From: a virus
Virus record (IMG/VR): IMGVR_UViG_3300046376_000226
Location: 1 to 64,000 of that record
Direction: 5' to 3' (one strand)
DNA: 64,000 bases
The notes under the pieces were generated by a model. The model did not search any database and had not been told where the DNA came from. It was given only the letters and a program-made list of their open reading frames with translations. Each line of letters opens with the position of its first letter. Position 1 is the stretch's first letter. This document shows, one piece after another, positions 17,109-61,407 of this stretch. Both the position numbers and the translations under genes were made by a program.

Positions 17109-17148
17109 AGCCTAAGGCCGGACATTTGAATTGTCAAGGGCTAATCAA
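17109..17148 (-). promoter_or_regulatory. Repeated sigma70-like promoter cassette (copy 1 of 6)
   Basis: TTGATTAGCCC-TTGACA-17 bp-TAGGCT. Confidence 0.75.
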
Positions 17149-17960: not shown

Positions 17961-17961
17961 T

Positions 17962-25349: not shown

Positions 25350-25388
25350 AGCTTAAGGCCAGGCGTTTGAATGTCAAGGGCTAATCAA
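25350..25388 (-). promoter_or_regulatory. Repeated promoter cassette (copy 5)
   Basis: TTGATTAGCCC-TTGACA-16-TAAGCT; ATG at 25343. Confidence 0.7.
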
Positions 25389-44899: not shown

Positions 44900-47800
44900 T
44901 TATGCTGCTTCCTGCATTTCTTCAACCGGTAAAGAGGGCAGCTTACCCTGCTTAACCTTGTAAACTAAGGCATGCATGGCATCCAGATAATCAGCCTTGG
45001 GCCGCTGCGGTGAGCCTGCCATCTTGAATAAATCCTTAATGTCAAACCAGAGTAGCGCCTGCTTATCGGCATTGGTCAGGTGGACCCCGGCAGCTTTTAG
45101 CTTTTCACCTGCGCGTCGCATAATGTCGCGCCACCATTCCCGTTCAGTGCCGTTGCGTGGCGCGTCAGCTAGCTTAGTCGTACCCTCATCCAGCTTCTTA
45201 GCCGTCAGGTTCTCCGGAGTCTTGAACGATTCGTCGTAGCTTCCCTCCACTCCTGGGCTCTGTTGATAAAGCCTGTGCCGCTGCCGAGCCCACTTGTAAA
45301 TCTCTGGCGCCAGGGCTCGCGCCGTTGGCCGGTCCAGCTTGCCCTCTGGTACTGCCATCAGCGCATCTAGTTCCTTGGATATCGTCTTGGCCTGATCCTC
45401 ATCGATAGAAACCAACCCCGAATTGAGCACATCCCGAAGCTGGCTCAGATGGGATTTAACGACCTCGCCTTTCTCGATCCGGTCTTTGCGGGTAGCCTCA
45501 TCGCTGAACTTAAACATGTTCCCCGCCATCAGGTTCATGTTCCGGCTGAACCACAGGTCCATAGTGGTGGGATCGTAGTCACCGTTGAGGTTAGAAAAGA
45601 ATGCCCCGATCTTGGCACCCAGCATCATAGCGCCGTTAACCGTGTGGTGCGCTAGTTCACCCCCTACGTCTAAACCAGGATACTGCTTAGCCAGCTCGCC
45701 CACGGTCATGCGCTTCATGAGCATCTTGCGCAGTTTGTCGCTGCCTAGCCCTGGATTATTCTCATCCCCGTGCCAGAGCTTATTGATCTTGGCGAAGTTC
45801 TCTTCCATCTGCTCGGCTTTAAGCCCACCCCCGAAGATCTCGCGCGACTCTGGCAGGCGGCCCGTCTTAACGAAGTGATGGTACGCTGCCCAGGTGCTCT
45901 CGGTATTAGGGAATACATCCTGACCTTGGCTAGTGATAGCCCACGCTAGTTTGAAGGCTAGGTCATGATCCTTATCCGTTGCGATCTTGGGTGCAATCTC
46001 GCCAGCTTTCTTGAGAGCCTTCCGAATGGTGCGACTGTACCAGCCAAAAGCATGGCTGGGCTTGCCGCCAGTCGTAGTGCCAGCCAGCGAGTGCATAACA
46101 TCGTGAACGACCGCATCCGATGCGTGCTCGCGATGCTCCTCATTTTCGTAATCGAGCTTCGGGTTATTGGCATCGTAGTACTCACCAATCTGCTCGTTCT
46201 TAAGCTTGCCTGGGAAGCTCCTAGCTCCAGTCAAGTGAGCATGCATGCTTTGTGGGTGAATGTCCGGATTCTGCTTAACCCAGGCTTTGCTAATTTTGTT
46301 TAGCCGGACAGAGGCAGCCTGCTCTTTTTTGTCTTCCGGAGTCTCGATTTTATCCCGATCAATGGCTGCTGTACGCATTGCTTCAGCCTTGATCGCCTTT
46401 TCTTCGTCCGCTTCGGCCTTAGTCTTCTTGACTTTGCCCGGAGCGGGCTGCTCCTCGGCCTCGGGCTCCTCGGCTTCTTCTTCCGCTCCAGGTTTTGCTC
46501 CAGGTTTAGTACCGGCCGTCTCGGGCAGCGGCTCGCCAGGGGCAGGTGGTGCGGCTTTCTGAGGCTTGGGCTTGGCAGCCTCAGTTTCGGTTGAAGTCGG
46601 TTTTTCAGGGACTAATCGGTTACGCCCCAGATCTTCGGCTGCTAAGCTTTCGTCTTCTGTCTTACCGACCTGTTTAGCCGATTTGGCGATTTGATGCGCT
46701 TCGTCACGATCAACAAATCGCCCTTTATTAGTGGTGAAACCGACTTCGTAGTTATTAGGATCTTTTCTGCGCTCAGCGGCTACAGCTGCGTCATAATGAG
46801 TAAAACCCTCGGTGATTTTCCCGGTCGGGACATGATGGACGGCAGCCGCCCGGATTGCCTCAGGTTGTTCCGGTGAGGGTTGCGGCTTCGCGGAAGGCGC
46901 TGCTGGCGGGGTTTTTGTCGGCGCGGCAGCAGGAGGTTCGTCATCCTGGTCTGGGGGCGGCGTTGCCGGGGGTGCCGCAGTAGTCGATACTGTCTGTCCA
47001 GCTAAATCATCGGGATCGCCCTGGGGTTTAACTAAACCGCCTTTAGCAAAGCCAGCAGGCTTAGTGGGTAACGGCACCTCGGCAGCCTTTTGCCGGTACT
47101 TTTCGACATCGATCTTTCCGTTAATCCATTGCTCACGCAGATTGTGCTTCATCTGCGTATGCTCTTCCGGTGTGATCGCTTCCGGGTCGTCCTCGTACGG
47201 TGTCACTAACCCACCACTACCTCCAACAAAGCGGTACTCATCCGGATCCTCACCCATGGCTTCTAAGCGCCTGTGCGCTTCGGCTTCATCGATCTTATGA
47301 TCAGAGAAATCGCGCTCGATCTTATTGATCTGGGCGTTGTCCTGATAGGTGTGATGCAACGAGGTAGCAATCGGTACATCCGGACGCCCTTGTTCAGAGG
47401 TGTTTTGGATTGCCCTGGTCAGGTTCTGGAATTCTTTTCCGGGCCGGATGGTCTCCGGGAAATAACGTTCATCCTGGTGGTGCGCCACGATTAAGCCGGT
47501 CTTAAAACTGCGGACACTGGGTTCCAGTACCCGATTGCGCCAGCCTGGGTCGTGCTGTTCGATATGATGGCGCATCCGGTTGGTTTCGCCCTCCGGAGTA
47601 ATCAAAGTGCCGTTGGCTTTAGCTAGCTCCCGCAGTTTCTGCGCGTCCTCGTGGCCCGCAAAAGCCATCGTGTTATTAATTACCGTGTTAATGAAGTCGG
47701 CTTCCCGTCGCTTCAATTTGTACGGAACATGGCTCGGGTCAGGTATATTAGGCAGATCCTCGGTACCCAGCGCATGCCCGCGCCCGGTCGCGGTATGACC

Positions 47801-50527
47801 GGCATTGAGATTAGAATAGTAGCCTTCCAGGTCGTTATAGAACTTGTTTCCCAGGCTCTTGTACGGCGTTTTCAAGCCCAGGGCGGCCAGCTTCTCGTTT
47901 AAATGCCCGAAATTATTAGCCAGGATATTAGTCGAGATGCCCTGGATATAGGATTGATGCGGTTCACCGGCTTTTCTGGGCAGGCTGACGCCTACGGAGG
48001 TAGGAATAAAACTGTGTCCCACTAGCTGTCCTACCGTAGTTCCCATCAGACGCGCCTCCGGGGTGTGTTCTTCGTACTGGACAGTGCGACTTTCGCGGGT
48101 GGGATAACGCTGAGCTTCTTTAGGTGCCGACAGATAACTGATATGCATCGGGCGCTTCTCAGCGATCGCTTGCTCGGCTTGGGCTAACATCTGGCGCTGC
48201 GGACCATGCTTGCCTTCCGGTAAGCCTCCTAGGAGCTGGTCATGGATCGGGTCGCCTTCAACGAAGTGCTCGCCTTTTATCGCGCCGTCTTTTTGTTTCT
48301 TAACACGCGGATCATCCTCGGAAACTAAGCGGGCGTGTTCTTTAACGGCTTCGGGTAATTTCGTTCCGGGGCTAAGCGCTTTAAATGCTGGCGGGTTAGC
48401 TTGGCCGTGGGTGCTACCTGGTGGCGCTCCTCCGGTGTAGATTCCACCCTTGGCTGGCGCAGTTGGCTGTGCGGTCGTAGCCGGTGGTACCGGTGCTTTA
48501 GCCGGTGGTACCGGCGCTTTAGCTGCCGCAATCGGCTTCTTTGGCGCTGGTGCTGAAGGAGCAGGGAGGAGCGTCTTCGGTTTAGCTGGCGCAACCGGCT
48601 GGACTTTCCCGAGTTCCGGTTTTTGCAGGAGCGAAAGCTCAACTGTCTTGGCGCTAGGCTGAGCAGGAAGAGAAGAAGGTGCCGCTGGCGGGGGCAGTAA
48701 GGACTGCGGCCTGGCGGCCGGGGCAGCCGGAGCTGGTAGCTGGGCTGACTGGGAAGCACCCGGAAGGATATTCTGGGTATCGGTAATGGCTCGCGGCTGA
48801 CTAGATCCCCGCGTGATTAGTTTAGTTGTTAACGGGGTTTGTTCTTCCTCTTCCTCTTCCTCGGTTTGCGCGGCTTGAGCTTGCGGTGTTCTGCCGCGAA
48901 AAGGCCAGGGAATCCCGCCAAACCAACCACCTTGGCTTGGAGCGGCTTCCGGTGCCGCGCTAATATGGGCTGTTCCTCCGCTAGCGCCCAGTGGGACCTC
49001 TGTCTGTGCAGGCGCAGGCGCATTGGTTTCACTAGGAACCATGGGCACTAACGTGTCTCCACCTTTGCCTTTACCTTTACCTTCACCACCGCCTTTGCCG
49101 GTGAGTTCAATGTCAGGGATTGGGTAGGGCTTACCATCACCGCCGACTATCTGGTAGCTGACAGCATGGTTATCGCTAAATCCCATGTCTTTGGCCGCAC
49201 CGTAGGTTAGGTCTAATACTTTACCTGGGTGCCTCCCTAGAGAGCCCTGGATATCGACAATCGGGAACTTGTGGATCTTGCCGTTGGGATCCGGTAGTTC
49301 GACATGAGCAGATTGAATCTGCCGGATGATCGCTTTGGCTTCAGGCGTATCCAATGCGTCATAACCGCCCTTCGAATTTAGCTGAGCAAAATGGCCGAAG
49401 GTCTTTTCCAGGACATCTACTGGCACGGCAACCGCCTTTAAATTTGGGTTCCGCGTGTTGACTCCACCAAAGAAGCCCCGCCCGTTATCATCAGCATCGA
49501 TACTACCGTCGTAATTGAGTCCAAAACTGGTGGCGGTACCGTAGATCCTCTTCCCGTCAATTGTGGTTGGCGCCTGATCTCCGGTGCCGGGTGATGGCAG
49601 TTGAATCTTGGGGGACTTTGCGCCTGTTTCACTACCGCTTGTTTGCGGCTCGCCACCGCCTTTCCGTCGATTGAATTCGGCAATAACTCTCGGGTCATCA
49701 AGCCGGTCGGTATCTAAGCTGCGCGCAATTTCGGATTTAAGCAGCGTGTCATTCAGGTTATCCTGCTCGCTGGGCTTGGCTGGCTCTGCCTTGGGCTTGG
49801 GTGCTGCCCCTGAAAGCGTCTTGGGCTCCTGACCTGAAACAATTGCTTGAGCGGCCCCTGGACTGTGTCCCTGATTAATCAGACCTCTCAGCTGCTCCTC
49901 GGTATCGGGCTGATCCTCGGCTATTTTCGGATAGACGGTCGGTTGCTGCTGGGGAGACTGTTGCTGCGGAGACTGCTGCTGGGGCGGCTGGGGCGGCGGC
50001 AACTCCCGACTCGCCATAGAGACCGGGGGCGCTGGCTGCTGTTGCTGGGGCTGCTGGTTGACCTTAGCTTCTGGTGCGTTAGGGGCAAAAACCTTTGGTT
50101 GATCTCCTTTCGCCTTCTCGACTGGAACTTCTGGCGCGTCTGGAGCAAAAGTTTTGGTTTCTGACTTCTCGACTGGGACCGCTGATGCGTCTGGAGCAAA
50201 AACTTTTCCACTGGGAGGAGGTTCTTGTGTTTTTGGCGGAAGCTCCTCGCGAGAGTGTAACTGGAAGGGATTCCCAGAGCGCGAAGGGTCTGGCGGCAAC
50301 GTCCATGGAATTTTTGATATGGCCGCCACGGGATCGGGATCACCCAATGCCAGCTGTTTGACGCTACCTCCCTCTTCGTATCCACGAGCGCCCTGGTTCA
50401 ATTGGTCCAGTTTCTTTACACCTATGCGCCTGACAGCATCCCGTTTTATTACGTACTCACCGGGCGTCAGCATCGCCGGAACGGTGTCAGTAGGACCAGG
50501 AGCGGGAGGTGGGGGGCGTGTCGGCAT
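44900..50527 (-). CDS. Large multidomain internal virion/ejection protein (1875 aa)
   Basis: N-terminal DTVPAMLTPGEYVIKRDAV motif, RlpA/DPBB-like segment, disordered linkers, C-terminal globular domain. Confidence 0.8.
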   Translation of the reverse strand: MPTRPPPPAPGPTDTVPAMLTPGEYVIKRDAVRRIGVKKLDQLNQGARGYEEGGSVKQLALGDPDPVAAISKIPWTLPPDPSRSGNPFQLHSREELPPKTQEPPPSGKVFAPDASAVPVEKSETKTFAPDAPEVPVEKAKGDQPKVFAPNAPEAKVNQQPQQQQPAPPVSMASRELPPPQPPQQQSPQQQSPQQQPTVYPKIAEDQPDTEEQLRGLINQGHSPGAAQAIVSGQEPKTLSGAAPKPKAEPAKPSEQDNLNDTLLKSEIARSLDTDRLDDPRVIAEFNRRKGGGEPQTSGSETGAKSPKIQLPSPGTGDQAPTTIDGKRIYGTATSFGLNYDGSIDADDNGRGFFGGVNTRNPNLKAVAVPVDVLEKTFGHFAQLNSKGGYDALDTPEAKAIIRQIQSAHVELPDPNGKIHKFPIVDIQGSLGRHPGKVLDLTYGAAKDMGFSDNHAVSYQIVGGDGKPYPIPDIELTGKGGGEGKGKGKGGDTLVPMVPSETNAPAPAQTEVPLGASGGTAHISAAPEAAPSQGGWFGGIPWPFRGRTPQAQAAQTEEEEEEEQTPLTTKLITRGSSQPRAITDTQNILPGASQSAQLPAPAAPAARPQSLLPPPAAPSSLPAQPSAKTVELSLLQKPELGKVQPVAPAKPKTLLPAPSAPAPKKPIAAAKAPVPPAKAPVPPATTAQPTAPAKGGIYTGGAPPGSTHGQANPPAFKALSPGTKLPEAVKEHARLVSEDDPRVKKQKDGAIKGEHFVEGDPIHDQLLGGLPEGKHGPQRQMLAQAEQAIAEKRPMHISYLSAPKEAQRYPTRESRTVQYEEHTPEARLMGTTVGQLVGHSFIPTSVGVSLPRKAGEPHQSYIQGISTNILANNFGHLNEKLAALGLKTPYKSLGNKFYNDLEGYYSNLNAGHTATGRGHALGTEDLPNIPDPSHVPYKLKRREADFINTVINNTMAFAGHEDAQKLRELAKANGTLITPEGETNRMRHHIEQHDPGWRNRVLEPSVRSFKTGLIVAHHQDERYFPETIRPGKEFQNLTRAIQNTSEQGRPDVPIATSLHHTYQDNAQINKIERDFSDHKIDEAEAHRRLEAMGEDPDEYRFVGGSGGLVTPYEDDPEAITPEEHTQMKHNLREQWINGKIDVEKYRQKAAEVPLPTKPAGFAKGGLVKPQGDPDDLAGQTVSTTAAPPATPPPDQDDEPPAAAPTKTPPAAPSAKPQPSPEQPEAIRAAAVHHVPTGKITEGFTHYDAAVAAERRKDPNNYEVGFTTNKGRFVDRDEAHQIAKSAKQVGKTEDESLAAEDLGRNRLVPEKPTSTETEAAKPKPQKAAPPAPGEPLPETAGTKPGAKPGAEEEAEEPEAEEQPAPGKVKKTKAEADEEKAIKAEAMRTAAIDRDKIETPEDKKEQAASVRLNKISKAWVKQNPDIHPQSMHAHLTGARSFPGKLKNEQIGEYYDANNPKLDYENEEHREHASDAVVHDVMHSLAGTTTGGKPSHAFGWYSRTIRKALKKAGEIAPKIATDKDHDLAFKLAWAITSQGQDVFPNTESTWAAYHHFVKTGRLPESREIFGGGLKAEQMEENFAKINKLWHGDENNPGLGSDKLRKMLMKRMTVGELAKQYPGLDVGGELAHHTVNGAMMLGAKIGAFFSNLNGDYDPTTMDLWFSRNMNLMAGNMFKFSDEATRKDRIEKGEVVKSHLSQLRDVLNSGLVSIDEDQAKTISKELDALMAVPEGKLDRPTARALAPEIYKWARQRHRLYQQSPGVEGSYDESFKTPENLTAKKLDEGTTKLADAPRNGTEREWWRDIMRRAGEKLKAAGVHLTNADKQALLWFDIKDLFKMAGSPQRPKADYLDAMHALVYKVKQGKLPSLPVEEMQEAA

Positions 50528-50576
50528 CGTTGATTTCCTACTTGAGTTTCAATCCTCGGTACTGTATAGTGGACAC

Positions 50577-50804
50577 ATGCTGCGGCGGCTTTTACTCTTA
50601 TTCCTGTTCCCTTATTTGCTTGCGGGGTTGCTTGCGGGAATCTATTTCCTGTGCTGGGCTGTGGCGTGGGCTTTCTTTGTTCTGGCGATTCCTATCTGTG
50701 AAATAACGCATCTGAATTACAATTTTGTGATGCTAGCAGAAGGAGTAGCACTGGTAATATGGTTGCTCTATTTATGTACTAAAGAAGCACTCAAGAAGTC
50801 TTAG
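50577..50804 (+). CDS. Small antisense membrane protein (moron-like)
   Basis: 75 aa with 2 hydrophobic segments; TTGAGT-17-TATAGT promoter ends 7 nt before the ATG. Confidence 0.6.
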   Translation: MLRRLLLLFLFPYLLAGLLAGIYFLCWAVAWAFFVLAIPICEITHLNYNFVMLAEGVALVIWLLYLCTKEALKKS

Positions 50805-53410
50805 GGTTTAGTTTTCAACTTCCCGTCTCCATCCCAGAACAACGTGCCGCTCTTGATGGCCTTGTAATCGGCATCGGTCTTGGGACGAGGTGCAGCATCT
50901 GAAATTTCCTTACTTACAGGCGTTGGTGAAAGTGAAACCTTTGCTGACGTAGATCCATCGCTCGAAGCATCCCAGCCGTGAGTAGGTGACCAAGGGGCAT
51001 CCCACTTCCTTTGCGGCGGTATCCCGATGTTATTTACTAGATTGCGATTCTTGTCCCTCATCCTATTGTTTTCATCCTCTATGTAGCCCTTTGTTGAATC
51101 CGTTAAGTTGCTCAGATTTTTCAGATCCGTTTCTGGGATGCGAGAACCGCCCTTGGTTAACTCGTCATTGTAGCGTTTGTAATCAGCTATAGCGTTGTTT
51201 TTAACCTCTCTGATGCCAGCCAGAGCCGTATCATAATCATTACCCCCTTGGGTAATTTTATTTAGAGGATTGATAGTGCTCACATTCGTTCCTCTCGGTA
51301 CCGAGAGGTCTATATTAGTAAACGGAATAGTACCACCCAACTCTTCCTGCTTCGGCGTCGCTGCGATGCCCTCGTATGTGCCTCCTGGTGTTTTCCCCAA
51401 GTGAGTGTTTAGATTTACCATGTCCTGCGCCAGCGAATCCGCGAACTTATTTACCGGCCCTTTTTTGGCCAGGAAGTCCCAGAAATCGTGTCCCCAGGAC
51501 TGCGCCCAGCTTGGCATCCCAGGCTGATATGCTGCCTGCGCCCAGGCAGCTTCCTTGCTCCGGACCATTTCATCTTGGGAAATAGTACTCAGAGGTATCT
51601 TATTCTCCTTTAGCCATAAGATCTTATCTTCAATTTGCTGCGCGTCCTTGATAGAATTTGCTGCGTTCTGAAGTCCAATTGCTTGAGGGCCTGTCGGGTC
51701 AGGAGCATTGGGATGGAGCTTGTAAAACCTGGCGTGCCGGAGCCACAAGTCCTGCCACTCTGGGCTAGAGTTCTTGATTGTGTCATAATTCATGGTTATA
51801 CCGTCTGGGATCGGTGGGCCACCGGGCCCAGCGTATTCCTCAAGCAGTTGTTGCTTACGCAAGTCCTCTGGACTCCCTTGTCCCGGTACAAATCCACTAG
51901 AGCCTTTGTAGAAGCGCCGTTCTAAAAATGGGTGTGCTGCATCCTCAGGAAGCGACGTATAAACCTTGCCCTTCTCATCTGTTTGCCAATTGAAAATAGG
52001 GTGAGCGGAATTCGCATCAGCATTCAATGTTTCCGCTGAGGCGTTCTCCTTTTGAGCATCAGCTGCTGCTTTCGCGCCCTCTACCGCCTGCTGATTACTA
52101 CCGCCAGCCATTAATGCAGGGTTTACCGCGCCTGTCTGACTAACAGTGGGTCCCTGCGGCATTTGATATGGAGCAGGATTATAGGCCCCAGGAGCCGCTG
52201 GCGGCCCTGTTTGGTCTTGGGCGATTGTCGGGTAACGCTGAGCCGGGTTCGGTTGCTGGGGGACCGGAGGAGCAGGGGCACTCGCCGGAAAGGGGACCTG
52301 ATTGCCAAAAGGCGACCAAACCGGACCCTGCTGGCTGCTAGGTGGTTGTTGTCCGTTGCCCTGTGGTTGTTGTGCGTTGCTCTGCTGCTCTAATACCTCG
52401 CTGGCATTGTGGTTAGTCATTAATGCCCGACCCCACGGTGTTGCTGCTAACTGCGAGGCGGATATCGTGGTCGAGCCGCCGCCCTTCAGGTTGATAACCC
52501 AGGCGGGTTCGCCCTTAATGCCGCCACCGGACAAATAGGTAGCGTCCTGGGCAGCGGTACTGACATTAGTCCTGAAAGCATCCAGTACCGCTTTTGGCGC
52601 AATAACCGGATGAACGTTCTGATCTTGCCAATGAGCCAGCGCACTTGCTTCAGGCGGGGGCGGGGCTGCTTGAGCTTGTTGCGGCGCTTGGTTATCCGGT
52701 GCCGGGGGCGCTAAGGGCGTTGGTCGCCGTGCCGGACTCCAGATGGAGCCGCCTTGTTGCGGCGGGTTGACTTGGGGCGGTGGTTCCTGCGCCTGCGTCG
52801 GTTCATAGTTACCCGTGGAAGGGTTCAAGAACATGCGTGTGCCCAGACCCGCTGCCTGGCGCTCTAGCGCCATTTGATTTAGAGGAGCAGCGTCCGATTT
52901 AGACTCAGAGCTTACAGTTCCTCCGGCATCATAACCTCGCACTAGACCTCCCTGCGCCATCCCTGCGCTAGGATCCTTCGGGGGAGGTTGCGGGGGTGTT
53001 CCCGATGTCCACTGATTGCTCCCAGGTTTTGCCTCGTAGTATGGCTGACCGTTTTCGTCTACCCCCGTATTCTTACCAGTACGAGTTATAGTCGGGTTCG
53101 GCTTCGTTACTGTTTTATTGTCACTGCCGTCGCCAGTGGTGTCTATATTTTGCGCGGCCTGTTGCGTGACTGGCTGCGTTATAGGAGCAACCATGGTCGC
53201 ACCTTGAGGAGTCTCTGCGACGGTACCATAGAGCCAGTTTTTATTCGCGGCCGCATGCTTCATTGCCGCCTCACCGAGTTGCGCCCTCTGTACCCCCTCT
53301 TTCATCTGCTCCCGCACCAGCGGGTTTATAGGCGAACTCATGAGTTGGTTAGCCGCTTCCATTGCGGTCTTACCAACCCCCGCCCACAGCGCACCTGCTT
53401 CTGTTGGCAC
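50801..53410 (-). CDS. Internal virion/ejection protein (869 aa)
   Basis: P/Q-rich low complexity with GMAQGGLVRGYDAGGTV motif; position in the operon. Confidence 0.7.
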   Translation of the reverse strand: MPTEAGALWAGVGKTAMEAANQLMSSPINPLVREQMKEGVQRAQLGEAAMKHAAANKNWLYGTVAETPQGATMVAPITQPVTQQAAQNIDTTGDGSDNKTVTKPNPTITRTGKNTGVDENGQPYYEAKPGSNQWTSGTPPQPPPKDPSAGMAQGGLVRGYDAGGTVSSESKSDAAPLNQMALERQAAGLGTRMFLNPSTGNYEPTQAQEPPPQVNPPQQGGSIWSPARRPTPLAPPAPDNQAPQQAQAAPPPPEASALAHWQDQNVHPVIAPKAVLDAFRTNVSTAAQDATYLSGGGIKGEPAWVINLKGGGSTTISASQLAATPWGRALMTNHNASEVLEQQSNAQQPQGNGQQPPSSQQGPVWSPFGNQVPFPASAPAPPVPQQPNPAQRYPTIAQDQTGPPAAPGAYNPAPYQMPQGPTVSQTGAVNPALMAGGSNQQAVEGAKAAADAQKENASAETLNADANSAHPIFNWQTDEKGKVYTSLPEDAAHPFLERRFYKGSSGFVPGQGSPEDLRKQQLLEEYAGPGGPPIPDGITMNYDTIKNSSPEWQDLWLRHARFYKLHPNAPDPTGPQAIGLQNAANSIKDAQQIEDKILWLKENKIPLSTISQDEMVRSKEAAWAQAAYQPGMPSWAQSWGHDFWDFLAKKGPVNKFADSLAQDMVNLNTHLGKTPGGTYEGIAATPKQEELGGTIPFTNIDLSVPRGTNVSTINPLNKITQGGNDYDTALAGIREVKNNAIADYKRYNDELTKGGSRIPETDLKNLSNLTDSTKGYIEDENNRMRDKNRNLVNNIGIPPQRKWDAPWSPTHGWDASSDGSTSAKVSLSPTPVSKEISDAAPRPKTDADYKAIKSGTLFWDGDGKLKTKP

Positions 53411-53536
53411 TTGGACGTATTGAGGGTGATATTGACTGGGGGTGAAGGTATACGGAACGTTTACCGCCTGCCTTTGGGTTTCGGGGGCTGCGATGGTACT
53501 AACCCTCTTCTTTCTGTGTTATGACATGTTGCGGTT

Positions 53537-54883
53537 CTAGACCAAGCCTTCCATGCGCAATCTGTAATAGAGGTCGTTTGGATTTTCCTGTTGCCCTTCT
53601 CCACGCTGTGATTGGGACTGGTTTAACGTCACTTCTTTCGCGGGAGGTGGAGCCGGGATCGCTGATGTCTGCATCTGCCACGGTTTAACTGACTGGGCGT
53701 ATTGCTGGGCGGCAGCCGTTAAGCCTGAGGCTAGCCCGCCAATTACGCCAGCCGCTTGGACTCTAGGATTTTGCCCTCCGCTCCACGAGGTATTAGCGGC
53801 ATTCGCTGCGTCAATTGATGGTGAAGCAGTGGCCACTCCTCCGGTCGTTTGCGGTGCCTGCGGAGTGGTTGGGGTTGGAGGCCCAACTTGTAAAGACTGG
53901 GTTCGGTCGGCGTAACTCTGGCCAGCCGGTCCTGGGTTTGTGGCATTAATGCCTGCCAGAGAGAGAGCCCTTCTGCGAGCCTCTTCAGGCTGGTCATCGC
54001 CCACATAACCTCCGGAGTCCATTCCAACTGGGGGTACTAACCCACCAGAGCGCATCTTTATTGGCGGCCCTCCTGCAATCGCGCTTTGTAGTTGGCTGTG
54101 AAAGTCTGCGATATCCGCAGGCGTAGCGGAACTGGGGTCACCGCCAAAATGAGCAAATATGGCCTTACCAGCATCGGCTAATGCGTTGGTGTGAGCCGAC
54201 AAAAAATCTGGTGCGGCGGGAGGCTGGCCTGGCTGGGTAATGGGTACAGCAGGTGGCGCTCCTGGCGCGGCGGGTGCGTGTACCCTGGCAAAAGCTTGTC
54301 CAGGCTGATAAGGCACATAATCCACCCCGCCAGAAGCGAGGGGTTGAGGAGTCCCGCCCCCGCTCGGGGGTAGCGGTGTGGCAGCCTGGAAGACTCCCGG
54401 CATCTGGGGTCCCTCGGAACCGGGACCGGCCTTCAGGAAACCGGGCTGGAATGGGCCGAAGGTGGGTGAACCCACGTTTTGAACCCCGCCAATGCTGGCC
54501 TGGCCGCTCGGGATTGGGTTGTAGACCGGGTAACCGCCATAGCGACCCAGTCCTACCGCGCTAAGACCAGCTGCACCCAGATTGGTTAGTCCAGCATCGG
54601 GACCGCCCACACCGTAGGGCGAATTTGTGCTGCCGCCTTGGCTATTACCACCGCTGCCCTGCGCATTGAGCCCCGCTAGATTCGTTCCGCCCCGCGCATT
54701 AATCAGCCCCGCTAGATTACTCGGATCATTTTGGTTGTTGGCGCCCTGGGCAATGGTGGGAGCAATACTACTGATGAAGGTGCCGACCTGGTCCAAGGGA
54801 ACATTCTGGGCTTGTAACGCCTGCGCTACACCCGGCCCGAAGGTGCTCGCAACGCTGTTCCAATCGCTAAAACTAGCTGCCAT
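53537..54883 (-). CDS. Gly/Pro/Ala-rich internal virion protein
   Basis: Low complexity with MRSGGLV and MDSGGYV motifs; overlaps the tfuA stop. Confidence 0.65.
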   Translation of the reverse strand: MAASFSDWNSVASTFGPGVAQALQAQNVPLDQVGTFISSIAPTIAQGANNQNDPSNLAGLINARGGTNLAGLNAQGSGGNSQGGSTNSPYGVGGPDAGLTNLGAAGLSAVGLGRYGGYPVYNPIPSGQASIGGVQNVGSPTFGPFQPGFLKAGPGSEGPQMPGVFQAATPLPPSGGGTPQPLASGGVDYVPYQPGQAFARVHAPAAPGAPPAVPITQPGQPPAAPDFLSAHTNALADAGKAIFAHFGGDPSSATPADIADFHSQLQSAIAGGPPIKMRSGGLVPPVGMDSGGYVGDDQPEEARRRALSLAGINATNPGPAGQSYADRTQSLQVGPPTPTTPQAPQTTGGVATASPSIDAANAANTSWSGGQNPRVQAAGVIGGLASGLTAAAQQYAQSVKPWQMQTSAIPAPPPAKEVTLNQSQSQRGEGQQENPNDLYYRLRMEGLV

Positions 54884-56180
54884 GGGTTGACTCCTTTGCC
54901 GCGTTAAGTCTTTCTAAGGCTACCCCTAGCTCGATGCAGTTGCTGAAACCGGTATCCAGGAGGTATTCTTCCGGATTGCAGTGCAGTTCTAGCCCCTCAC
55001 GTTCAAAATGCTCAGTTAGTATTTCAAAAGCGCCTCGCTCGAGGTTAACGCTGAGCCAATCGTCAACGCCGCTCTCTTTGATCTTCTTTTCAGTTGTAAC
55101 CGCTTGGGTCGCCCAGTAATCAAAGGCTTGATGGGTGCGCAAATAATCAATGATTTGCTGGCTATTGCGCCGGTACATCTTAGCCACGGTATTACTATGT
55201 TGTAATTTGCGGATGCGAGCATTCTGGATAATCAGCCGGTTGTACTCGCCCTGGGTCCAGCCATTAGCTGAAAGGTAAGAGGAAAACTCGCCCGGGGTTT
55301 CGATACCGCTGCGCTGTTGGAACCGGATATTCTCGCGCTCGACTTCCTCAATCGAGACGGTCACTAGCAGCAGATCGCAAAGCATCAGCGCCAGTTCCTG
55401 GTTAGAGCTGTCCCAGCAGATCCGCTCATACTCGGGGTGGTGAAGCAGCACGTAAGCGTCGATGTGCTGTTGGGGAATCGGTTCGTCGTTGACCTCAATC
55501 CTGCGATCCCGTTCATAGAGCGCCTGGAAAAAACGGGAGAGGTGGTCTGGAGTGGGCTTAAGCTTGGGCTCTGGTTTCAGTTCGCGGAAATTTTCCAGGA
55601 GCGCAGTAGCGTCAATGGCCTTCTGAGGTATGAGCGGGAAATCGGGACCACCCCAAAGCTGTTCACAGACCTCCTTAGTCCGCTCTGTGTAATTGATCTT
55701 CTGCGCTGCGGCAAGGAACGCTTCGGCCTTGTTATCTTTGACTGCGTTGACCCCGGCCCTGATATCGACCAATGGAACAGTGAAACATTTATAGTCTCCA
55801 CTGGGTAATTCAGCATACGAAACAGCCACCTCCCCGTCATCTTCGGTTACACCGTCTCGATACCATTCGTAGATCTGGCCCACACCGATCATTCCCAGCC
55901 AATCCAACTCCGATGCGCGTAAAGCGCCCATCGATGCCGCGCCATAGATGGCCTTGACGCCCGGATACTGGAGCGCATAGACGATCTCCTTATGCCAGGG
56001 GGATAAATTTTCCCTGAACGAACCATCCACCAGAAGGATATGCGTAGGATTCAGGTTAACTACGTCGGTGACGATGTCCCCTTGTCGGGCAGGTCGACGG
56101 TAGATTGCCTCAGGAAGGATCTCGCGTGCCCGTGTTATAGGCAGCGAAGGGCCCAGATAGACTAGGACTTTCTCACTCAT
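54873..56180 (-). CDS. tfuA: TfuA-like protein with C-terminal extension
   Basis: VYLGPSL...PARQGDI...LVDGSF...PWHKEI...YGAASMGALRASEL..GMIGVGQIYEWYRDGVTEDDGEVAV...TVPLVDIR...QKAIDA. Confidence 0.93.
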   Translation of the reverse strand: MSEKVLVYLGPSLPITRAREILPEAIYRRPARQGDIVTDVVNLNPTHILLVDGSFRENLSPWHKEIVYALQYPGVKAIYGAASMGALRASELDWLGMIGVGQIYEWYRDGVTEDDGEVAVSYAELPSGDYKCFTVPLVDIRAGVNAVKDNKAEAFLAAAQKINYTERTKEVCEQLWGGPDFPLIPQKAIDATALLENFRELKPEPKLKPTPDHLSRFFQALYERDRRIEVNDEPIPQQHIDAYVLLHHPEYERICWDSSNQELALMLCDLLLVTVSIEEVERENIRFQQRSGIETPGEFSSYLSANGWTQGEYNRLIIQNARIRKLQHSNTVAKMYRRNSQQIIDYLRTHQAFDYWATQAVTTEKKIKESGVDDWLSVNLERGAFEILTEHFEREGLELHCNPEEYLLDTGFSNCIELGVALERLNAAKESTHGS

Positions 56181-57390
56181 TTAAAACCGCCTTTTCGGAC
56201 AGTGCTTTGATTTTGCGTTCCGCGTAAGAAAGGCATCGCAGGCCAGGTCGCCAATGGTCGAACCGGAACGGCTCGCACTGGGGCGAGAACACGCGCACCA
56301 CGTGAACCGCGCCGTCTAGGTACGAACCCATCTCTTTAACGAAGACCTCCGAGATGCCGTAGCCCCTGATTAGCTTAAGCAGGTAACGCAATTCGTTTTT
56401 AACATCCGGGAAAGAAACGGTGCGGTAATCAGACAGGGGTGATCCAACGGGCAGCTCCTGAAACAGCTCATGCAACTTGGCTTGATTCATGCGCTTCATT
56501 AACAAGAACTGCCGCCGGAACAAATCATCGCGCGCGCCTGATATGTAACAGCACCTCGCCTGGGCTGCCTCGGTGATAGCGCGGATAGCCGCTACCTCGG
56601 CGTTCAGGTGGGCGCCGTAGCCGCCGAATGTACCGGCACAGCGGCCGCTTAAGTCCAGGATAATGGCCGAAAATACCGGGATATTGTAATCGGTAGTGAT
56701 ATCGAAAAGGTGCAGGCGCAGATCGGCGGACTCGATCTTGCGAATACAGCTCTCTATCTTCTCTGATACGGTCCCTAGCGGGGTTCGGGTAAGGAGCATT
56801 CCGCTGTCCAGGAGGAACTGGTTCAGCGTCCAGGCATCCCGCTCGATTACTTCGTACAGACCGGCCAGGATTGCGTCTTGGACTGAGCCCCCGCTGGCTA
56901 ACCCATTAGAACCCATCTGAACATACATCAGGGCTTGACCTTTAATTCTGGTGACTAACCAGAGCAGGTCGCTCGGAACTAACTTAACTACGCCGTTCTG
57001 AATGTTAGTTGCTTCTTCCCAGGCGATCGGGGTCAGCTCACTTAAGACACTAGACCGGGTGGGGAAACAGTCCTCCAGTGCTAAGCGCTCTGCTTGGGGT
57101 AGTTCAGCGGCTCGAGCGATCCGGAAGGCGCCATAGGGATGTTCCCCTGCATGGAACTCGATTGCTTCCATGATCGCGCCGCACCGGGAATAAGCTGGGG
57201 CGAGTCCCTTGCCAGAGTGAATGGAGACGGTCTCCGAAAGCGCCCGCACGCAGCTATGGACCGGCAGACCCACCGCATCTAACCCGGTCAGATCCGCTAC
57301 CCTGGAAATGCCGAAGTCCTTAAGCAAGTCTGTGCGCGTTACCGCATTGACTGCCTGGGCGGTTGCTTCACGTAGTTCTTTGCGGGTCAT
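56173..57390 (-). CDS. ycaO: YcaO ATP-dependent backbone-activating enzyme (thioamide-forming type)
   Basis: GISRVADLTGLD..GLPV...SGKG...MEAIE...SNGLASG...GLYEVIERDA...GYGAH...RAITEAAQAR...ISGARDD; no C-terminal PxP motif; adjacent tfuA. Confidence 0.95.
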   Translation of the reverse strand: MTRKELREATAQAVNAVTRTDLLKDFGISRVADLTGLDAVGLPVHSCVRALSETVSIHSGKGLAPAYSRCGAIMEAIEFHAGEHPYGAFRIARAAELPQAERLALEDCFPTRSSVLSELTPIAWEEATNIQNGVVKLVPSDLLWLVTRIKGQALMYVQMGSNGLASGGSVQDAILAGLYEVIERDAWTLNQFLLDSGMLLTRTPLGTVSEKIESCIRKIESADLRLHLFDITTDYNIPVFSAIILDLSGRCAGTFGGYGAHLNAEVAAIRAITEAAQARCCYISGARDDLFRRQFLLMKRMNQAKLHELFQELPVGSPLSDYRTVSFPDVKNELRYLLKLIRGYGISEVFVKEMGSYLDGAVHVVRVFSPQCEPFRFDHWRPGLRCLSYAERKIKALSEKAVLNE

Positions 57391-58874
57391 ATGGTTGAGG
57401 CTCTGAAGAATTCAGCAATAAGGACTCGGTCATAGATGGCTCTGTCCATGGCCAGCCTGATAAGGCCGCACAAGCGTTCCGCTCGTGAGGAGCGCAATAT
57501 ATTGTCCGCTACCCAGCGTCCGAATTTCAGGTAGAGCGCCCTTAGTAGCCACGGGCAGCGCTTCGAGTAGAGCCAGCTTCGGAACATCACCCAGCGAGGG
57601 TTATCTGCTCCGTAGCACCTCCTAGCCACCCAGCAGCTTATGGCCGCCGCCGCTGCTGCTGCCGATGCGACGGCTCCTGCTGCTCCCACTCCCGCTGAGA
57701 CCATGCCCGCTTGCTGCTGGGCTGCTAACTGCTGTTGTTGCGCATTTATTTGGGCCTGATTAAATGCAATCCCATTCATGGTGGCGTAATTGGCTTGTTG
57801 AAAACTGTTATAGGCTCCGGCCTGCCCCAGTTCTGTTTGGGCCAGGTTGGTGCCCCCTAATCCGAATGGGCGCTTTTGAAATAGTTGACCGGCAGTCTGC
57901 ATGTTCAGCATGAGATTTTGGGCCTGCTGATTTTGCAGGTTGCCATAGATATTAGCCATCTGGGCGGTATCCATGGCCATCTGTTCGGTAGCTCCTTGGG
58001 CTTGCCCGTAGAGCTGGCCGCCTAAGCTTCCTACGTTTGCGCCTCCCTGGTAGAGCTGACCGGCTCCCTGGAGTTGCTGGCCGCCTAGACCGATGGTCTG
58101 GCCACCGGCCCCGATCGTTTGAGCGCCCAGACCCTGGAGCTGGCCTGCCTGGCCGAGCATAGAAGCGTACTGGTTAATGTCGCCCATCGCTTCACCCCGG
58201 CGCTGCATCCCGTACTGGATGGTGTTAAGGCCCAGCTGACGGGCAGCAGCAGCTTGCCCAGCCATGCCCTGGCCTAAGGATGCTGCTCCCAGTGCTCCGG
58301 CGCTCGAGCCCAGGCCCGCGAGCATCATCTGTTGCTGGACCTGGGGGTCCATGGGTTGCTGCAAGAGTTGTTGCCCTAATTGATAGGGGATCTGGGCGCT
58401 TCCGGCTAATTGCCCTCCTAGACCTGCGATTTGGCCGCCAAGCCCTGCCTGTTGCTGGCCCATACCGATCAGAGGCTGAGCGAGTCCGGCCTGGGTTGAT
58501 CCCAGGTTATACATAGGCTGAACGGCTTGATTCACTGTCTGGGCCGCGTTACGGATCCCCTGGATATCGGCGGTATTGGTGACTCCTTGGCGACCAGCGA
58601 TCGTGTTAGCCAGGCCCGACATGATAGCCTGCTGGCCAGCGGTGCCCGCACCAACCGCCCCAGTCTGCTGACCGAGATTGGACTGCCATTGGTTGTAGGC
58701 GTTCTGTAGTGCCGGATACCGGTTAGCAAAGTCTGCGTCACTTAACGCGTAAGAGGATATGTCACCCCCGATAGCCAGCTGGTTGAGCCCCATTCCCGAT
58801 TGATAATCAAAGCCCGGGGGCGCGCCTTGCGCTTTAAACTGAGTTGAACCGCCGCCGCCACCACCACCGCCCAT
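57387..58874 (-). CDS. Gly/Gln-rich DNA pilot/ejection-like protein with C-terminal CWVARRCYG (CFI-box-CTERM-like) domain
   Basis: MGGGGGGGGS start, GQ-rich heptads, poly-Ala then CWVARRCYG...WVMFRSWL...YLKFG. Confidence 0.7.
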   Translation of the reverse strand: MGGGGGGGGSTQFKAQGAPPGFDYQSGMGLNQLAIGGDISSYALSDADFANRYPALQNAYNQWQSNLGQQTGAVGAGTAGQQAIMSGLANTIAGRQGVTNTADIQGIRNAAQTVNQAVQPMYNLGSTQAGLAQPLIGMGQQQAGLGGQIAGLGGQLAGSAQIPYQLGQQLLQQPMDPQVQQQMMLAGLGSSAGALGAASLGQGMAGQAAAARQLGLNTIQYGMQRRGEAMGDINQYASMLGQAGQLQGLGAQTIGAGGQTIGLGGQQLQGAGQLYQGGANVGSLGGQLYGQAQGATEQMAMDTAQMANIYGNLQNQQAQNLMLNMQTAGQLFQKRPFGLGGTNLAQTELGQAGAYNSFQQANYATMNGIAFNQAQINAQQQQLAAQQQAGMVSAGVGAAGAVASAAAAAAAISCWVARRCYGADNPRWVMFRSWLYSKRCPWLLRALYLKFGRWVADNILRSSRAERLCGLIRLAMDRAIYDRVLIAEFFRASTI

Positions 58875-59311
58875 TAGTTTACCTCCTCGTCGTAGATGTA
58901 GGCGGTTTCAGGTGCTCGTTTGAGCCGGATCCGCCTCAGGTTTTTCGGGCCGAGCGCCTCGGCTTTTTCGCATAACAGGAACAAGGGGTTCCCCGTCATG
59001 CGCTTAAACTCGGTAATCAGACTCCGGGTTAATTTCAGGAAGACGCGCGGGCTCATCTTATCGGGATGAAGCGCCGGGTAGACTACCAGTTGCGGGATCG
59101 TATGAGCGTAGCCGCGCAGCTGGCCGTGATAAAACACGAGGTAGATCGGGAACATGCGCAACAGCTCTTTCCCGGTCAGCTCGCGCGCCATCTGGTCCAG
59201 GTTCCAGTGCTGCAAATCTTTCTCGTTTTCACAGCGAATCAGTGAAATACCGGCTTTATCAGAGTCTGGGGAGTTCATGTTAGTCTTCCGTCTGCTGTGA
59301 TGATGGCCCAT
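58874..59311 (-). CDS. Hypothetical protein (possible GNAT-like fold)
   Basis: Between tail and ejection genes; probable start at the internal MNSPD. Confidence 0.45.
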   Translation of the reverse strand: MGHHHSRRKTNMNSPDSDKAGISLIRCENEKDLQHWNLDQMARELTGKELLRMFPIYLVFYHGQLRGYAHTIPQLVVYPALHPDKMSPRVFLKLTRSLITEFKRMTGNPLFLLCEKAEALGPKNLRRIRLKRAPETAYIYDEEVN

Positions 59312-61407
59312 AACAAATCCCCTCTGGAGATGCCTGCCCCGAAGACAAGCACCACAGCGGTCCCGGCCGCGTTCACAAATCCTGAAAGAGTCACCTGGGT
59401 TTTTGAGTCAACGGTCGCGACGGTCGCCCCGGGCAGGATCCCTAGCCCGCTAACCGGCATCCCGGGCTTGATCTGGGTAGTGTCCGGAATGGCCGTAATC
59501 TTCTTGGTGCCGAAAGTGAGGCCGACCGCCAGAGCTGTCCCGGTAGCCGCGACTGAAATCGTGATGGTCTTATCCATCGAGAAAGTGAGCGCTACCCCGA
59601 TCGCTAGGCCGTGCGTAAAGCCGCTTAGAATCACAGAGTTTGCCCCTGTGTTAACCTGGACCACGGTGGTTCCCGCCCCGATCCCGTTGCCGACCGCCTC
59701 CATGCCGACCGTGATATTGGCAATATCCGCGCTCGGGATGTTACTGATCTTGGTACTCCCATCGATGGTGCCAGTGGTGTTAACGGTCACGCCGCCAGTC
59801 GGAGCGCTCGCGACCGTGGCTCCGACCGGGATCCCGGCCCCGGTGACCGGTGCTCCTACTACGATGCCGGAGCTAACGCCCTCAAGAGTGATCGTGACCG
59901 AGCCATTATTAATATCGCCCGTAGTGGTAATCAGGGAGGTGGTGCCACTGGTAGTCAGGACGGGCGGAAAATTAGTGAAGGTCAGCCCGACATTCGCCTG
60001 GCTGATGGTGGCAGCCGCCGAAATAGTCAGCGAAGTCGACGAGAGAATTTTAACGACCGTGGCCCCGGTCGGAATACCGTTCCCGCTTACCCCAGCACCG
60101 ACGTCGATCCCGGGGGTAGCCACCAGGGTAATAGTCGTAGTGCTATTTAAGGTGCCGCTGGTATTAATGACCGCGCCGCCGGAGTCGGTGATACCCCGTC
60201 TGCTCGCCGCTAAGTTCGGGATCAGGATATCAAAGTTGGTGAACATATCAGTCACCAACCCGGCCGCCTGGGTCTGGTAACTGTACGGAGTGACCACCGG
60301 ATGCAGGAGCGCCATCCGGCGAGGGAAAATAAAGGTGGCAGCCCAATTATTATCCTGGGAAGCGAAAAACTGGACCGGTGCGCCGAAAGTTGACGATTGA
60401 TAAGCGAAGGTCGTGAAATAGTAGCGAGTCAGGATCTCCAGATCGTCTGCGAACGCTGGGACCGAGAGATAGGTTGGGCTAAGGCTGGCTTCTAGCTTGA
60501 TCCCGGTGATCGCTAAAGCGTTCCCGGCGGTTGCCAGCAAGTTCAGGTTCTGGCTAGTGCCAGCGTTTAGGCCCCCTAGCCATTTATTAAGGTTGCCGCT
60601 GGTGATCCGGAAGTTGGCGCCGACCCCAAAAGGGAATCCTACGTAGAGCCCGGTTACTCCTTCGCCAAAGTGCCAGGTACCGCCGCTAGGGAAGGCGGGA
60701 ATAGCAGGGACCGTGATCCAGGTCCACTGATTGGCCGTTGTCAGGGTAAAAGCGGCGGTGTAACTCTCGTCGCGTCCGCTGCTAGCCAGGTAGACCGAAT
60801 AAGTGCCCGGGGTAGTGCCATAGGCCCAAAAAGATAAGGACATCTTCTGCCCCCGGAGAGCCACGATGTCTGAGCCTTCGAAGAGATGCTCGTGCGAGTA
60901 AAGATCGGTGGCTAGCAGAGTAGTTACCACCCCGGGTCCGACCGTATAATTGATGGCGGTAGGGATGTTATCATTGTTGGGGCCTGCCGCCGGACCGTTA
61001 ATCGAGGAGATAGCCAAAATGTTAACGAGATTGGCTTGAGCAAAGCTCATGTCGTAAGCGGGTCCCCCGCCGGCCGGCACAGCAATGGCGGCACCGGTCT
61101 GTTGCACCTGGTAAACGCAATTCTTGACGTAATTCTTGATGGTCTTAACCGGGAACATCTGCGGCTCGTATTCGCCGGTTGCGGTATTCCAGAAATACCA
61201 GACGCCATCCATGGCGATCGGGCCCTGGTCACTGGTGGGCAGGTCTGAACCCGGTGGCAAAATTAAGCCCAGCAAAAAGTTGCCCTCGATATAGCCGGTC
61301 ATGAGCTGGACGGCTTGCTGGAAAGTTTCGTCCATGTCGCCCTTGAACCCTTCCGGGAAAGGCGCAATCGCGATCGTAAGCGGGATCTGAATAGCGGGGG
61401 TAGGCAT
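59275..61407 (-). CDS. Tail fibre/spike protein with repeated beta modules
   Basis: Four repeats of the I.VG..V.G.GIP.GATV type; N-terminal carbohydrate-binding-like domain. Confidence 0.75.
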   Translation of the reverse strand: MPTPAIQIPLTIAIAPFPEGFKGDMDETFQQAVQLMTGYIEGNFLLGLILPPGSDLPTSDQGPIAMDGVWYFWNTATGEYEPQMFPVKTIKNYVKNCVYQVQQTGAAIAVPAGGGPAYDMSFAQANLVNILAISSINGPAAGPNNDNIPTAINYTVGPGVVTTLLATDLYSHEHLFEGSDIVALRGQKMSLSFWAYGTTPGTYSVYLASSGRDESYTAAFTLTTANQWTWITVPAIPAFPSGGTWHFGEGVTGLYVGFPFGVGANFRITSGNLNKWLGGLNAGTSQNLNLLATAGNALAITGIKLEASLSPTYLSVPAFADDLEILTRYYFTTFAYQSSTFGAPVQFFASQDNNWAATFIFPRRMALLHPVVTPYSYQTQAAGLVTDMFTNFDILIPNLAASRRGITDSGGAVINTSGTLNSTTTITLVATPGIDVGAGVSGNGIPTGATVVKILSSTSLTISAAATISQANVGLTFTNFPPVLTTSGTTSLITTTGDINNGSVTITLEGVSSGIVVGAPVTGAGIPVGATVASAPTGGVTVNTTGTIDGSTKISNIPSADIANITVGMEAVGNGIGAGTTVVQVNTGANSVILSGFTHGLAIGVALTFSMDKTITISVAATGTALAVGLTFGTKKITAIPDTTQIKPGMPVSGLGILPGATVATVDSKTQVTLSGFVNAAGTAVVLVFGAGISRGDLLWAIITADGRLT

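Follow-up and report, generated by a model that had tools for sequence, protein, structure and literature searches.

Genomic locus and identity of the YcaO-TfuA pair

The stretch of DNA analysed here (the window; 64,000 nucleotides) corresponds to bases 1-64000 of the 74,555-bp IMG/VR virus record IMGVR_UViG_3300046376_000226, which was recovered from a soil metagenome. The record has a 130-bp terminal direct repeat and a CheckV completeness of 100%, and the window is part of a complete 74.5-kb uncultured soil phage whose genome encodes a large terminase, a helicase, RecT, and tail-fibre genes. The window carries two adjacent, co-oriented genes, ycaO and tfuA, directly downstream of the gene of a protein designated p495 (Table 1). 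Blastn of the region gave no match in 50,697 deposited phages, tblastn of YcaO and TfuA found no homologue in the same 50,697 genomes, and a literature search returned no paper on a viral YcaO or TfuA. This agrees with an earlier annotation made from the letters of the window (the original prediction), according to which no described phage system for thioamidation of virion proteins was known. As enzymes, YcaO and TfuA belong to a known kind; new are their occurrence in a virus and the virion protein proposed as their substrate.

Both genes were intact and lay exactly where they had been predicted, and the DNA bore out the overlaps claimed for them with each other and with both neighbours: 4 nucleotides (nt; ATGA) between p495 and ycaO, 8 nt between ycaO and tfuA, and 11 nt between tfuA and p448. 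YcaO matched Pfam family PF02624 over profile positions 1-324 of 325 (E 2.7e-56; 191.7 bits, cutoff 25.7), and TfuA matched PF07812 with residues 52-168 (E 4.2e-31; 107.6 bits, cutoff 30). The YcaO motifs listed in the original prediction were all present: MEAIEFH (E75, E78), GSNGLASGG, YEVIERDAW, and ITEAAQAR. Misalignment of the catalytic Glu residues, which the same source had named as a sign against its reading, was not observed: EAIE, SNGLASG, ERD, and TEAAQ aligned with MJ1094, the McrA-type YcaO that was the closest match in the Protein Data Bank (PDB; 6PE3/6PEU, E 3.1e-30). Residues E75, E78, E180, E183, R184, D185, E274, Q277, and R279 were invariant in 30 YcaO homologues. Ratios of non-synonymous to synonymous substitution (dN/dS), estimated on saturated synonymous sites, were 0.13 for YcaO and 0.15 for TfuA, indicating purifying selection like that on p495 (0.13) and on p608 (0.11), another protein of the same genome.

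The best NCBIfam model for YcaO was TIGR03266, the YcaO of McrA-glycine thioamidation, with 178.6 bits against a cutoff of 365; NF040716 was matched weakly (32.9 bits). TfuA scored 137.5 bits against NF033432 (TfuA-related McrA thioamidation protein; cutoff 235.2), a model of about half its length. Its first ~200 residues matched the TfuA structure 6XP8 both by sequence profile (E 3.5e-30) and by fold, as judged from an AlphaFold2 (AF2) model (Foldseek E 6.8e-12; VIA Z 20.7, root-mean-square deviation 2.2 over 188 residues). Together these matches support a thioamidation-type YcaO-TfuA pair, and on present evidence the phage enzymes would work like the McrA-glycine thioamidation pair without being a member of it.

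Residues ~205-435 of TfuA formed a conserved helical extension that matched no Pfam family. The motifs ICWDS.N, QNARIRKL, and RR.TQ..DY.RTH of this extension were common to all five viral lineages described below, and in a word-based search with the extension 120 of 120 among the matches listed came from this phage group. An Atlas structure search retrieved bacterial TfuA proteins of ~450 amino acids (aa) with the same fold (TM 0.62). The extension also resembled SurA-N-like modules weakly (Atlas TM 0.36-0.41), and VIA aligned its residues 257-333 only with trigger factor (Z 7.0) and a SurA-like chaperone (Z 6.4); a chaperone likeness of the SurA-N/trigger-factor type is taken as a lead only.

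Table 1. Features at and around the ycaO-tfuA locus, in window coordinates
Feature	Position	Strand	Remarks
ycaO, predicted ATP-dependent backbone amide-activating enzyme	56173..57390	-	405 aa, intact, PF02624
tfuA	54873-56180	-	435 aa, intact, PF07812
tfuA, N-terminal TfuA domain, ~aa 1-200	55581..56180	-	PF07812, fold match to 6XP8
tfuA, helical C-terminal extension, ~235 aa ("long TfuA" form)	54873..55580	-	conserved in all five viral lineages
p495, Q/A/G-rich, IVP-B position, proposed substrate	57387..58874	-	stop overlaps ycaO start
p495, uncharged small-residue tract, aa 389-414 (AGMVSAGVGAAGAVASAAAAAAAISC), proposed modification site	57633..57710	-	26 residues, Ala/Gly/Ser/Val
p495, CWVAR-type C-terminal domain, aa 414-495	57390..57635	-	widespread C-terminal module
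p495, motif FQKRPFGLGG, aa 332-341	57852..57881	-	conserved, possible recognition element
p145, small GNAT-fold protein, IVP-A position	58874..59311	-	AF2 model, Foldseek
p710, tail-fibre-like	59275..61407	-	phrog_6427, E 1.7e-11; HMO-2011 gp28
p448, p869, p1875, large low-complexity proteins, IVP-C/D position	44900..54883	-	position and size only
IVP, internal virion protein.

Conservation of the pair among phage lineages

In a large group of phages, the pair is evidently a core gene of long standing. YcaO clusters numbered more than 120, with identities of 61-100%, and many of these were on 74-79 kb contigs; one close YcaO (P0046) lay on a 315-kb contig. All 13 IMG/VR contigs of the window clade that carry the pair keep the gene order. 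The one change of order among them was an HNH gene inserted between the p495 homologue and ycaO in one contig (L002, 9505-10044), similar to an HNH gene at 69025-69462 of the phage genome. Since ycaO there is preceded by the HNH gene, direct translational coupling to the p495 homologue is evidently not essential.

More distant relatives were sought by scanning with a conserved 383-aa protein of the genome, which retrieved the 131.7-kb phage G402, and by a scan with a broad TfuA alignment, which retrieved L116, L117, and L118. Together with the window clade, these make up the five viral lineages compared here; L139, a sister of L117, was added from a metagenome scan. Where compared, the lineages were 35-38% identical in YcaO and 37-43% in TfuA. 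In G402 (YcaO 35% and TfuA 41% identical over full length), the pair is located elsewhere than the 383-aa gene, in the company of fibre-like genes, a p145-like gene (39%), and a p495-like gene (31-33%), with large proteins encoded downstream. The order GNAT-like protein, p495-like protein, YcaO, long TfuA was shared by G402, L116, and L117, while L118 encodes an analogous tract-bearing protein upstream of the pair. The adjacency of ycaO and tfuA was kept in all viral lineages.

A conserved link of ycaO-tfuA to virion genes, on whose absence the original prediction was to be abandoned, was thus present in every relative checked, i.e., in the 13 clade contigs and in four further divergent viral lineages. 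Scans anchored on p495, on p608, and on the p495 tail found no family relative without YcaO. In a quick maximum-likelihood tree of YcaO, all phage sequences formed one group (SH-aLRT 100) apart from every cellular group sampled, a pattern in line with a single ancient acquisition, after which the enzyme diverged together with its phages.

The protein upstream of ycaO and its small-residue tract

The proteins encoded directly upstream of ycaO were homologous in the window clade, G402, L116, and L117 (BLAST E 2e-4 to 2e-27). Among the genes directly downstream of tfuA, no similarity was seen between lineages. The upstream protein was the only conserved neighbour of the pair, with a length of 210-547 aa across the phage lineages and conservation along its length. 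Its last ~95 residues followed a common plan with the motif F..R.(F/Y)G(L/I).G, a Q/N/A-rich stretch, and a tract of uncharged small residues. The motif occurred in four of the five lineages, L118 being the exception, with F, R, G, and G invariant in the alignment; its version in p495 is a possible recognition element.

The tract, 14-26 residues long (A/G/S/T/V/I/L/M), was present in the upstream protein of every viral lineage. In L116, L117, and L118 it constitutes the C-terminus itself, ending 0-1 residue before the stop codon and directly before ycaO; an internal tract with a C[WH]VAR domain behind it was found in the window clade, G402, and L139. The p495 tract was the longest such run among the 77 open reading frames (ORFs) of the phage genome, and the mean Kyte-Doolittle hydropathy of residues 394-417 was ~1.7; the p495 tail looks membrane-active. 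A Cys residue follows the tract directly in the window clade and G402 and is missing in L116, L117, and L118.

The domain behind the tract of p495 belongs to a CWVAR-type module that was found in 822 clusters at 50% identity, always C-terminal and without a Pfam family. Its pattern, CWVAR..YG..NPRW..FR.WL after a Gly/Ala-rich hydrophobic stretch, was observed on proteins of 91-1173 aa (P0245-P0394). The module also terminates gp25 of the cultured Puniceispirillum phage HMO-2011, which has no YcaO, and it possibly serves ejection proteins for interaction with membranes. As it is missing in L116, L117, and L118 and present without YcaO in HMO-2011, the domain is dispensable for the link to YcaO, and its candidacy as a YcaO recognition element was rejected on these grounds and for its wide distribution. 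The sister lineages L117 and L139 differ in the CxVAR domain and have both kept the tract.

Setting among probable virion genes

Reading with transcription, the gene order is fibre-like p710, GNAT-fold p145, p495, YcaO, TfuA, and then p448, p869, and p1875. Sequence families were silent around the pair (Pfam, PHROG, and NCBIfam-type searches), except for p710, which is also related to the annotated tail fibre gp28 of phage HMO-2011 (E 5e-10). A profile of p145 retrieved nothing useful from PDB sequences, and for this protein the fold search alone worked: with an AF2 model of pLDDT 75, the top PDB matches in Foldseek were almost without exception acetyltransferases of the GNAT or a related type (lowest E 5.8e-3; most probabilities 0.9-1.0). 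In the viral database BFVD, the top match had an E of 5.9e-4. The protein was conserved in the G402, L116, and L117 lineages. Protein p608 resembled viral protein clusters only (score 0.98), and 17% of the members of one of these clusters carry the Phage_stabilise domain, which we take to be that of the P22 gp10 tail-hub family. No family match was obtained for p448, p869, or p1875 in sequence-family searches, nor any hit for p1875, in which a wall-lytic domain had been suspected, in a phmmer search of PDB sequences. The architecture of these three proteins varies between relatives, and p1875-like segments reappear further downstream in G402 and L118. Glycine-rich flanks, as originally described, were confirmed by composition (p495: A 16, G 16, Q 15%; p448: G 15, A 15, P 12%).

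In podoviruses, the operon for internal virion proteins (IVPs) lies downstream of the tail-hub gene and encodes a small, non-structural, acetyltransferase-like IVP-A, then IVP-B, and then the very large IVP-C and IVP-D; the IVPs sometimes carry enzymatic cargo (Hardies et al., 2016, PMC4819975). By gene order and sizes, the locus of the window would fit the arrangement of T7 gp13-gp16 and their relatives (GNAT-like IVP-A, IVP-B, large IVP-C/D, after tail-hub and fibre genes), which suggests an IVP-operon position for the pair, with p495 probably an ejection protein of the IVP-B type. No described podovirus IVP operon is known to contain a YcaO or TfuA, in which the phage locus differs from them. 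The layout recurs without these enzymes in HMO-2011, where the fibre genes are followed by gp25 (706 aa, with a CWVAR-type tail as in p495), gp24, gp23, and the 1128-aa gp22. Hhalign comparison of p145, p495, and p608 with T7 gp13, gp14, and gp12 gave no similarity, so the IVP identity of the neighbours is derived from gene order, sizes, and one fold. The original description of a cassette embedded in an ejection-protein operon accords with the gene order and the fold of p145, but the identity of the neighbours as IVPs was not borne out by sequence families.

Cellular relatives

Among 400 sampled genomes of the Legionella class, 20 contained YcaO relatives (26-36% identical), followed by TfuA in all but three cases; the TfuA was usually long. 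In this class and in metagenomes, TfuA relatives mostly measured ~440-490 aa. The Legionella-class operons L046-L062 had no obvious substrate gene adjoining; in these, YcaO and long TfuA often come after a protein whose tail is rhodanese-like or after one of ~90 aa ending in GG, which from their sequence tails we read as MoeZ/ThiF-type and ThiS-type proteins, respectively. In Legionella sp. W05-934-2 (L007, 8844-9935), a 363-aa acidic low-complexity protein ending in ...AEAVVGAVGAAAI overlaps the ycaO start by 4 nt, a bacterial parallel to the phage arrangement. Its Ala-rich tail was discarded as a pattern of the class, being one case among 20; the others mostly have MoeZ-like or ThiS-like genes upstream.

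A metagenome sample comprised 46 evaluable loci of related YcaOs, with 678 other ORFs as background. At eight of these loci the C-terminus of the upstream ORF was an uncharged run of 14 or more small residues, and at another five such a run came just before a CxVAR domain, compared with 8 of the 678 background ORFs having a C-terminal run. Tracts were thus enriched upstream of related ycaO genes (13/46 loci vs. 8/678 ORFs, p 7e-12), also at the level of lineages (6/31, p 1e-5).

Some of these loci appear to be classic double-glycine clusters for peptides that are made on the ribosome and modified after translation (RiPPs). In L163/L165, a 125-aa precursor with a clear double-glycine leader ending ...ELSDNDLERIAGG is followed by a 24-residue Ala/Gly-rich core, and L162 encodes a 141-aa precursor with a 30-residue small-residue run. 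In L162 and L163, ycaO and a long tfuA are followed by genes of an HlyD-like protein and a C39-peptidase ABC exporter. Precursors with tract cores were also seen in L148/L160, with a glycosyltransferase gene downstream in L148, and a second precursor family ended in MSEVAGG-STYFN(A/M)TACGAA (L198, L200, L206; L185 as a variant). Read from these gene clusters, cellular enzymes of this kind would act on such tracts.

The original prediction had stated that no RiPP precursor, transporter, or protease lies near the phage pair. This remains correct for transporters and proteases, no family of which was found among the neighbours, but the gene directly upstream carries a precursor-like tract.

Proposed thioamidation of p495

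We infer the chemistry, substrate, site, and sulfur source as follows. The pair would be made late in infection, together with the virion proteins, as a working backbone-thioamide synthase. From the established chemistry of its family, YcaO is expected to activate a backbone amide at the expense of ATP, and TfuA would deliver sulfide from a thiocarboxylated carrier of the ThiS/MoaD type, following the known TfuA route in which such a carrier is hydrolysed (PMC13063428). Neither ThiS nor ThiF was found in the phage genome; since the phage encodes neither a carrier nor its activating enzyme, the carrier would have to come from the host. Bacterial relatives often have MoeZ-like or ThiS-like genes adjoining ycaO, in keeping with that TfuA route. 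The substrate would be p495, encoded immediately upstream in the IVP-B position, and the site its 26-residue uncharged tract (aa 389-414); the helical extension of TfuA may help to hold this unfolded, low-complexity substrate. As a speculation on its role, the thioamide could raise the lipophilicity of a membrane-inserting tail or protect it better from proteases.

We put the chances that p495 is thioamidated by the phage at its small-residue tail, by means of host sulfur carriers, at about even. The broader proposal, that a large and ancient group of podovirus-like soil phages thioamidates the membrane-inserting tail of its own DNA-ejection protein with a RiPP-type YcaO, a long TfuA, and host carriers, is held more tentatively and somewhat below even. 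Modification of the phage's own ejection proteins had been part of the original prediction; the comparison favoured the tract of the upstream protein and not the Gly-rich proteins encoded downstream.

The archaeal YcaO-TfuA system for McrA thioglycine consists of the same two components, provided the best profile and structure matches of the phage pair, and acts on a full-size protein rather than a small peptide, as proposed here. It differs in that the phage TfuA has ~235 additional C-terminal aa, the setting is viral, McrA is missing, and the proposed site is an Ala/Gly-rich tract instead of a single buried Gly. The cellular clusters L162, L163/L165, and L148/L160 resemble the phage locus in having a long TfuA (~470-480 aa) and, directly upstream of ycaO, an ORF with an uncharged tract of A/G/S/T/V residues, which in the clusters is terminal and 18-30 aa long. 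Their YcaOs, in contrast, are 32-35% identical to that of the phage and belong to another group of the tree, their precursors measure 98-141 aa, and they possess a GG leader (L163/L165) and a leader-peptidase exporter (L162, L163), neither of which the phage has; the phage tract is part of a virion-module protein of 210-547 aa. Being in another tree group, these enzymes support the phage reading by analogy. RiPP gene clusters are recognised by a short precursor made up of leader and core, together with a leader peptidase or an exporter; cellular relatives show these features and the phage does not, its tract-bearing protein being 495 aa long. In thioamitides of the thioviridamide type, YcaO-TfuA installs several thioamides in an Ala-rich core. 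There, the same enzyme pair acts on several consecutive small residues, but the clusters are actinobacterial, comprise further tailoring enzymes, and yield small secreted peptides, none of which applies to the phage locus. The YcaO of Escherichia coli forms a thioamide in ribosomal protein uL16 (Rice et al., 2026, PMC13063428), thus acting on a folded or full-size protein as proposed for the phage; it works without TfuA, its substrate gene is not adjacent, and the match of the phage YcaO to NF040716 is weak.

Several observations weigh against modification of the p495 tract. Both enzymes scored below the NCBIfam cutoffs of the McrA-type equivalogs. Within the clade the sequence of the tract is poorly conserved, its composition alone being kept. 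The tract would also fit a membrane-inserting helix of an IVP-B-type protein, and T7 gp14 starts with a similar small-residue segment, so the tract may exist for reasons unrelated to YcaO. At 33 of the 46 evaluable related loci no such tract was seen, and in the tree the tract-type RiPP group does not include the YcaOs of the phages. The adjacency seen in every phage lineage may be owed in part to inheritance of the whole module from a common ancestor and not to selection for coupling.

Alternative targets and activities

The most serious competitor, which we nevertheless regard as unlikely, is a host protein as target, modified late in infection or, if the enzymes were packaged with the IVPs and injected, early. 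The translational coupling of ycaO and tfuA to ejection-protein genes would suit such delivery, and IVPs can host domains active in the host cytoplasm, such as the virion RNA polymerase of N4 (PMC4819975). Both proteins characterised as targets of YcaO thioamidation, McrA and uL16, are cellular (PMC13063428), and the bacterial YcaO/long-TfuA operons with MoeZ-like or ThiS-like neighbours show no obvious adjacent substrate. A host target would, however, leave unexplained why a tract-bearing upstream protein is the only conserved neighbour of the pair and why precursors of the relatives have the same kind of tract as their core, and no recognisable IVP-like or capsid-targeting part was seen in YcaO or TfuA, for which no dedicated test was made.

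Slightly less probable still is that the p495-like protein serves as an oversized RiPP precursor whose thioamidated tail, instead of working within the virion, would be cleaved off to act as a small free bioactive peptide, for example against competing bacteria or phages. The position of the tract at the extreme C-terminus in three lineages resembles that of a RiPP core, and the cellular relatives include true RiPP clusters with similar cores. The phage genes, on the other hand, are accompanied by no protease, C39 exporter, or double-glycine cleavage motif; the upstream protein is long and conserved, and its gene occupies the place of a structural gene, next after that of a GNAT-type assembly factor; and the tract is internal, before the CxVAR domain, in the window, G402, and L139 lineages.

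We think it improbable that the modified protein is a different one of the phage, such as the capsid protein or one of the downstream IVP-C/D-like proteins (at their GGxV motifs, for example). Such a target would accord with the overlap of tfuA with the p448 start and with the concentration of the pattern [FYMW]xxGGx[VI] in p448, p869, and p1875, which hold seven of its nine occurrences in the genome, but the genes directly downstream of tfuA lack similarity between lineages and, in the other four lineages, none of the downstream proteins examined had the pattern. The GGxV motifs were accordingly rejected as a target for want of conservation between lineages.

Least probable of all is a different YcaO chemistry (azoline or amidine formation, e.g., at the Cys after the tract) or a non-catalytic role in assembly, which the several reactions known in the YcaO superfamily (PMC13063428), the invariance of that Cys in the window clade and G402, and the scores below the equivalog cutoffs would allow, but against which stand an intact and conserved TfuA (thioamide-forming YcaOs have this protein as their hallmark partner), the McrA thioamidation enzymes as best matches by profile and structure, invariant catalytic motifs, and the absence of the Cys from L116, L117, and L118.

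Other features of the phage genome

Elsewhere in the window, a transposase-like 271-aa ORF (phrog_4285) adjoins a region with extreme AT skew (-0.53) at 17145-20170, and a PAPS-reductase/DndC-like ORF (phrog_424, E 1.8e-35) lies at 25385-26344; a connection of the latter with sulfur supply for thioamidation would be pure speculation. The beta-rich protein p212 (61604-62242), which ends in ...ELISGG, was missing at the equivalent position in the relatives examined.

The 383-aa protein used for scanning is encoded at 66576-67727 of the genome (L006, 4576-5727). It was 93-96% identical across the clade, with a dN/dS of 0.02, vs. only ~60-75% identity for other proteins of the clade, and it was 73% identical in the 131-kb phage G402, amid different neighbouring genes. 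Family searches with it gave no match; by its position only, it is presumed to be the capsid protein. Beyond the window end, glycosyltransferase-like and methyltransferase-like genes and an HNH endonuclease gene (genome 68267-72414) form a cluster between the presumed scaffold and capsid genes, and a similar cluster precedes the capsid-like gene of G402.

Implications

Proteins with backbone thioamides are extremely rare. Only McrA and ribosomal protein uL16 have been characterised as thioamidated proteins (PMC13063428). If the proposal is correct, p495 would be the first thioamidated viral protein and the third thioamidated protein of any kind, and phages would apply RiPP-type chemistry to a structural protein of the virion. 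Since the candidate substrate is encoded next to both enzymes and co-expression is feasible, the locus would make a tractable model. Among cellular systems, the analysis further suggests a class of RiPPs, apparently not yet characterised, in which long TfuA proteins go with Ala/Gly-rich cores, and it raises the question of what use a thioamide would be to a protein that crosses or inserts into the host envelope.

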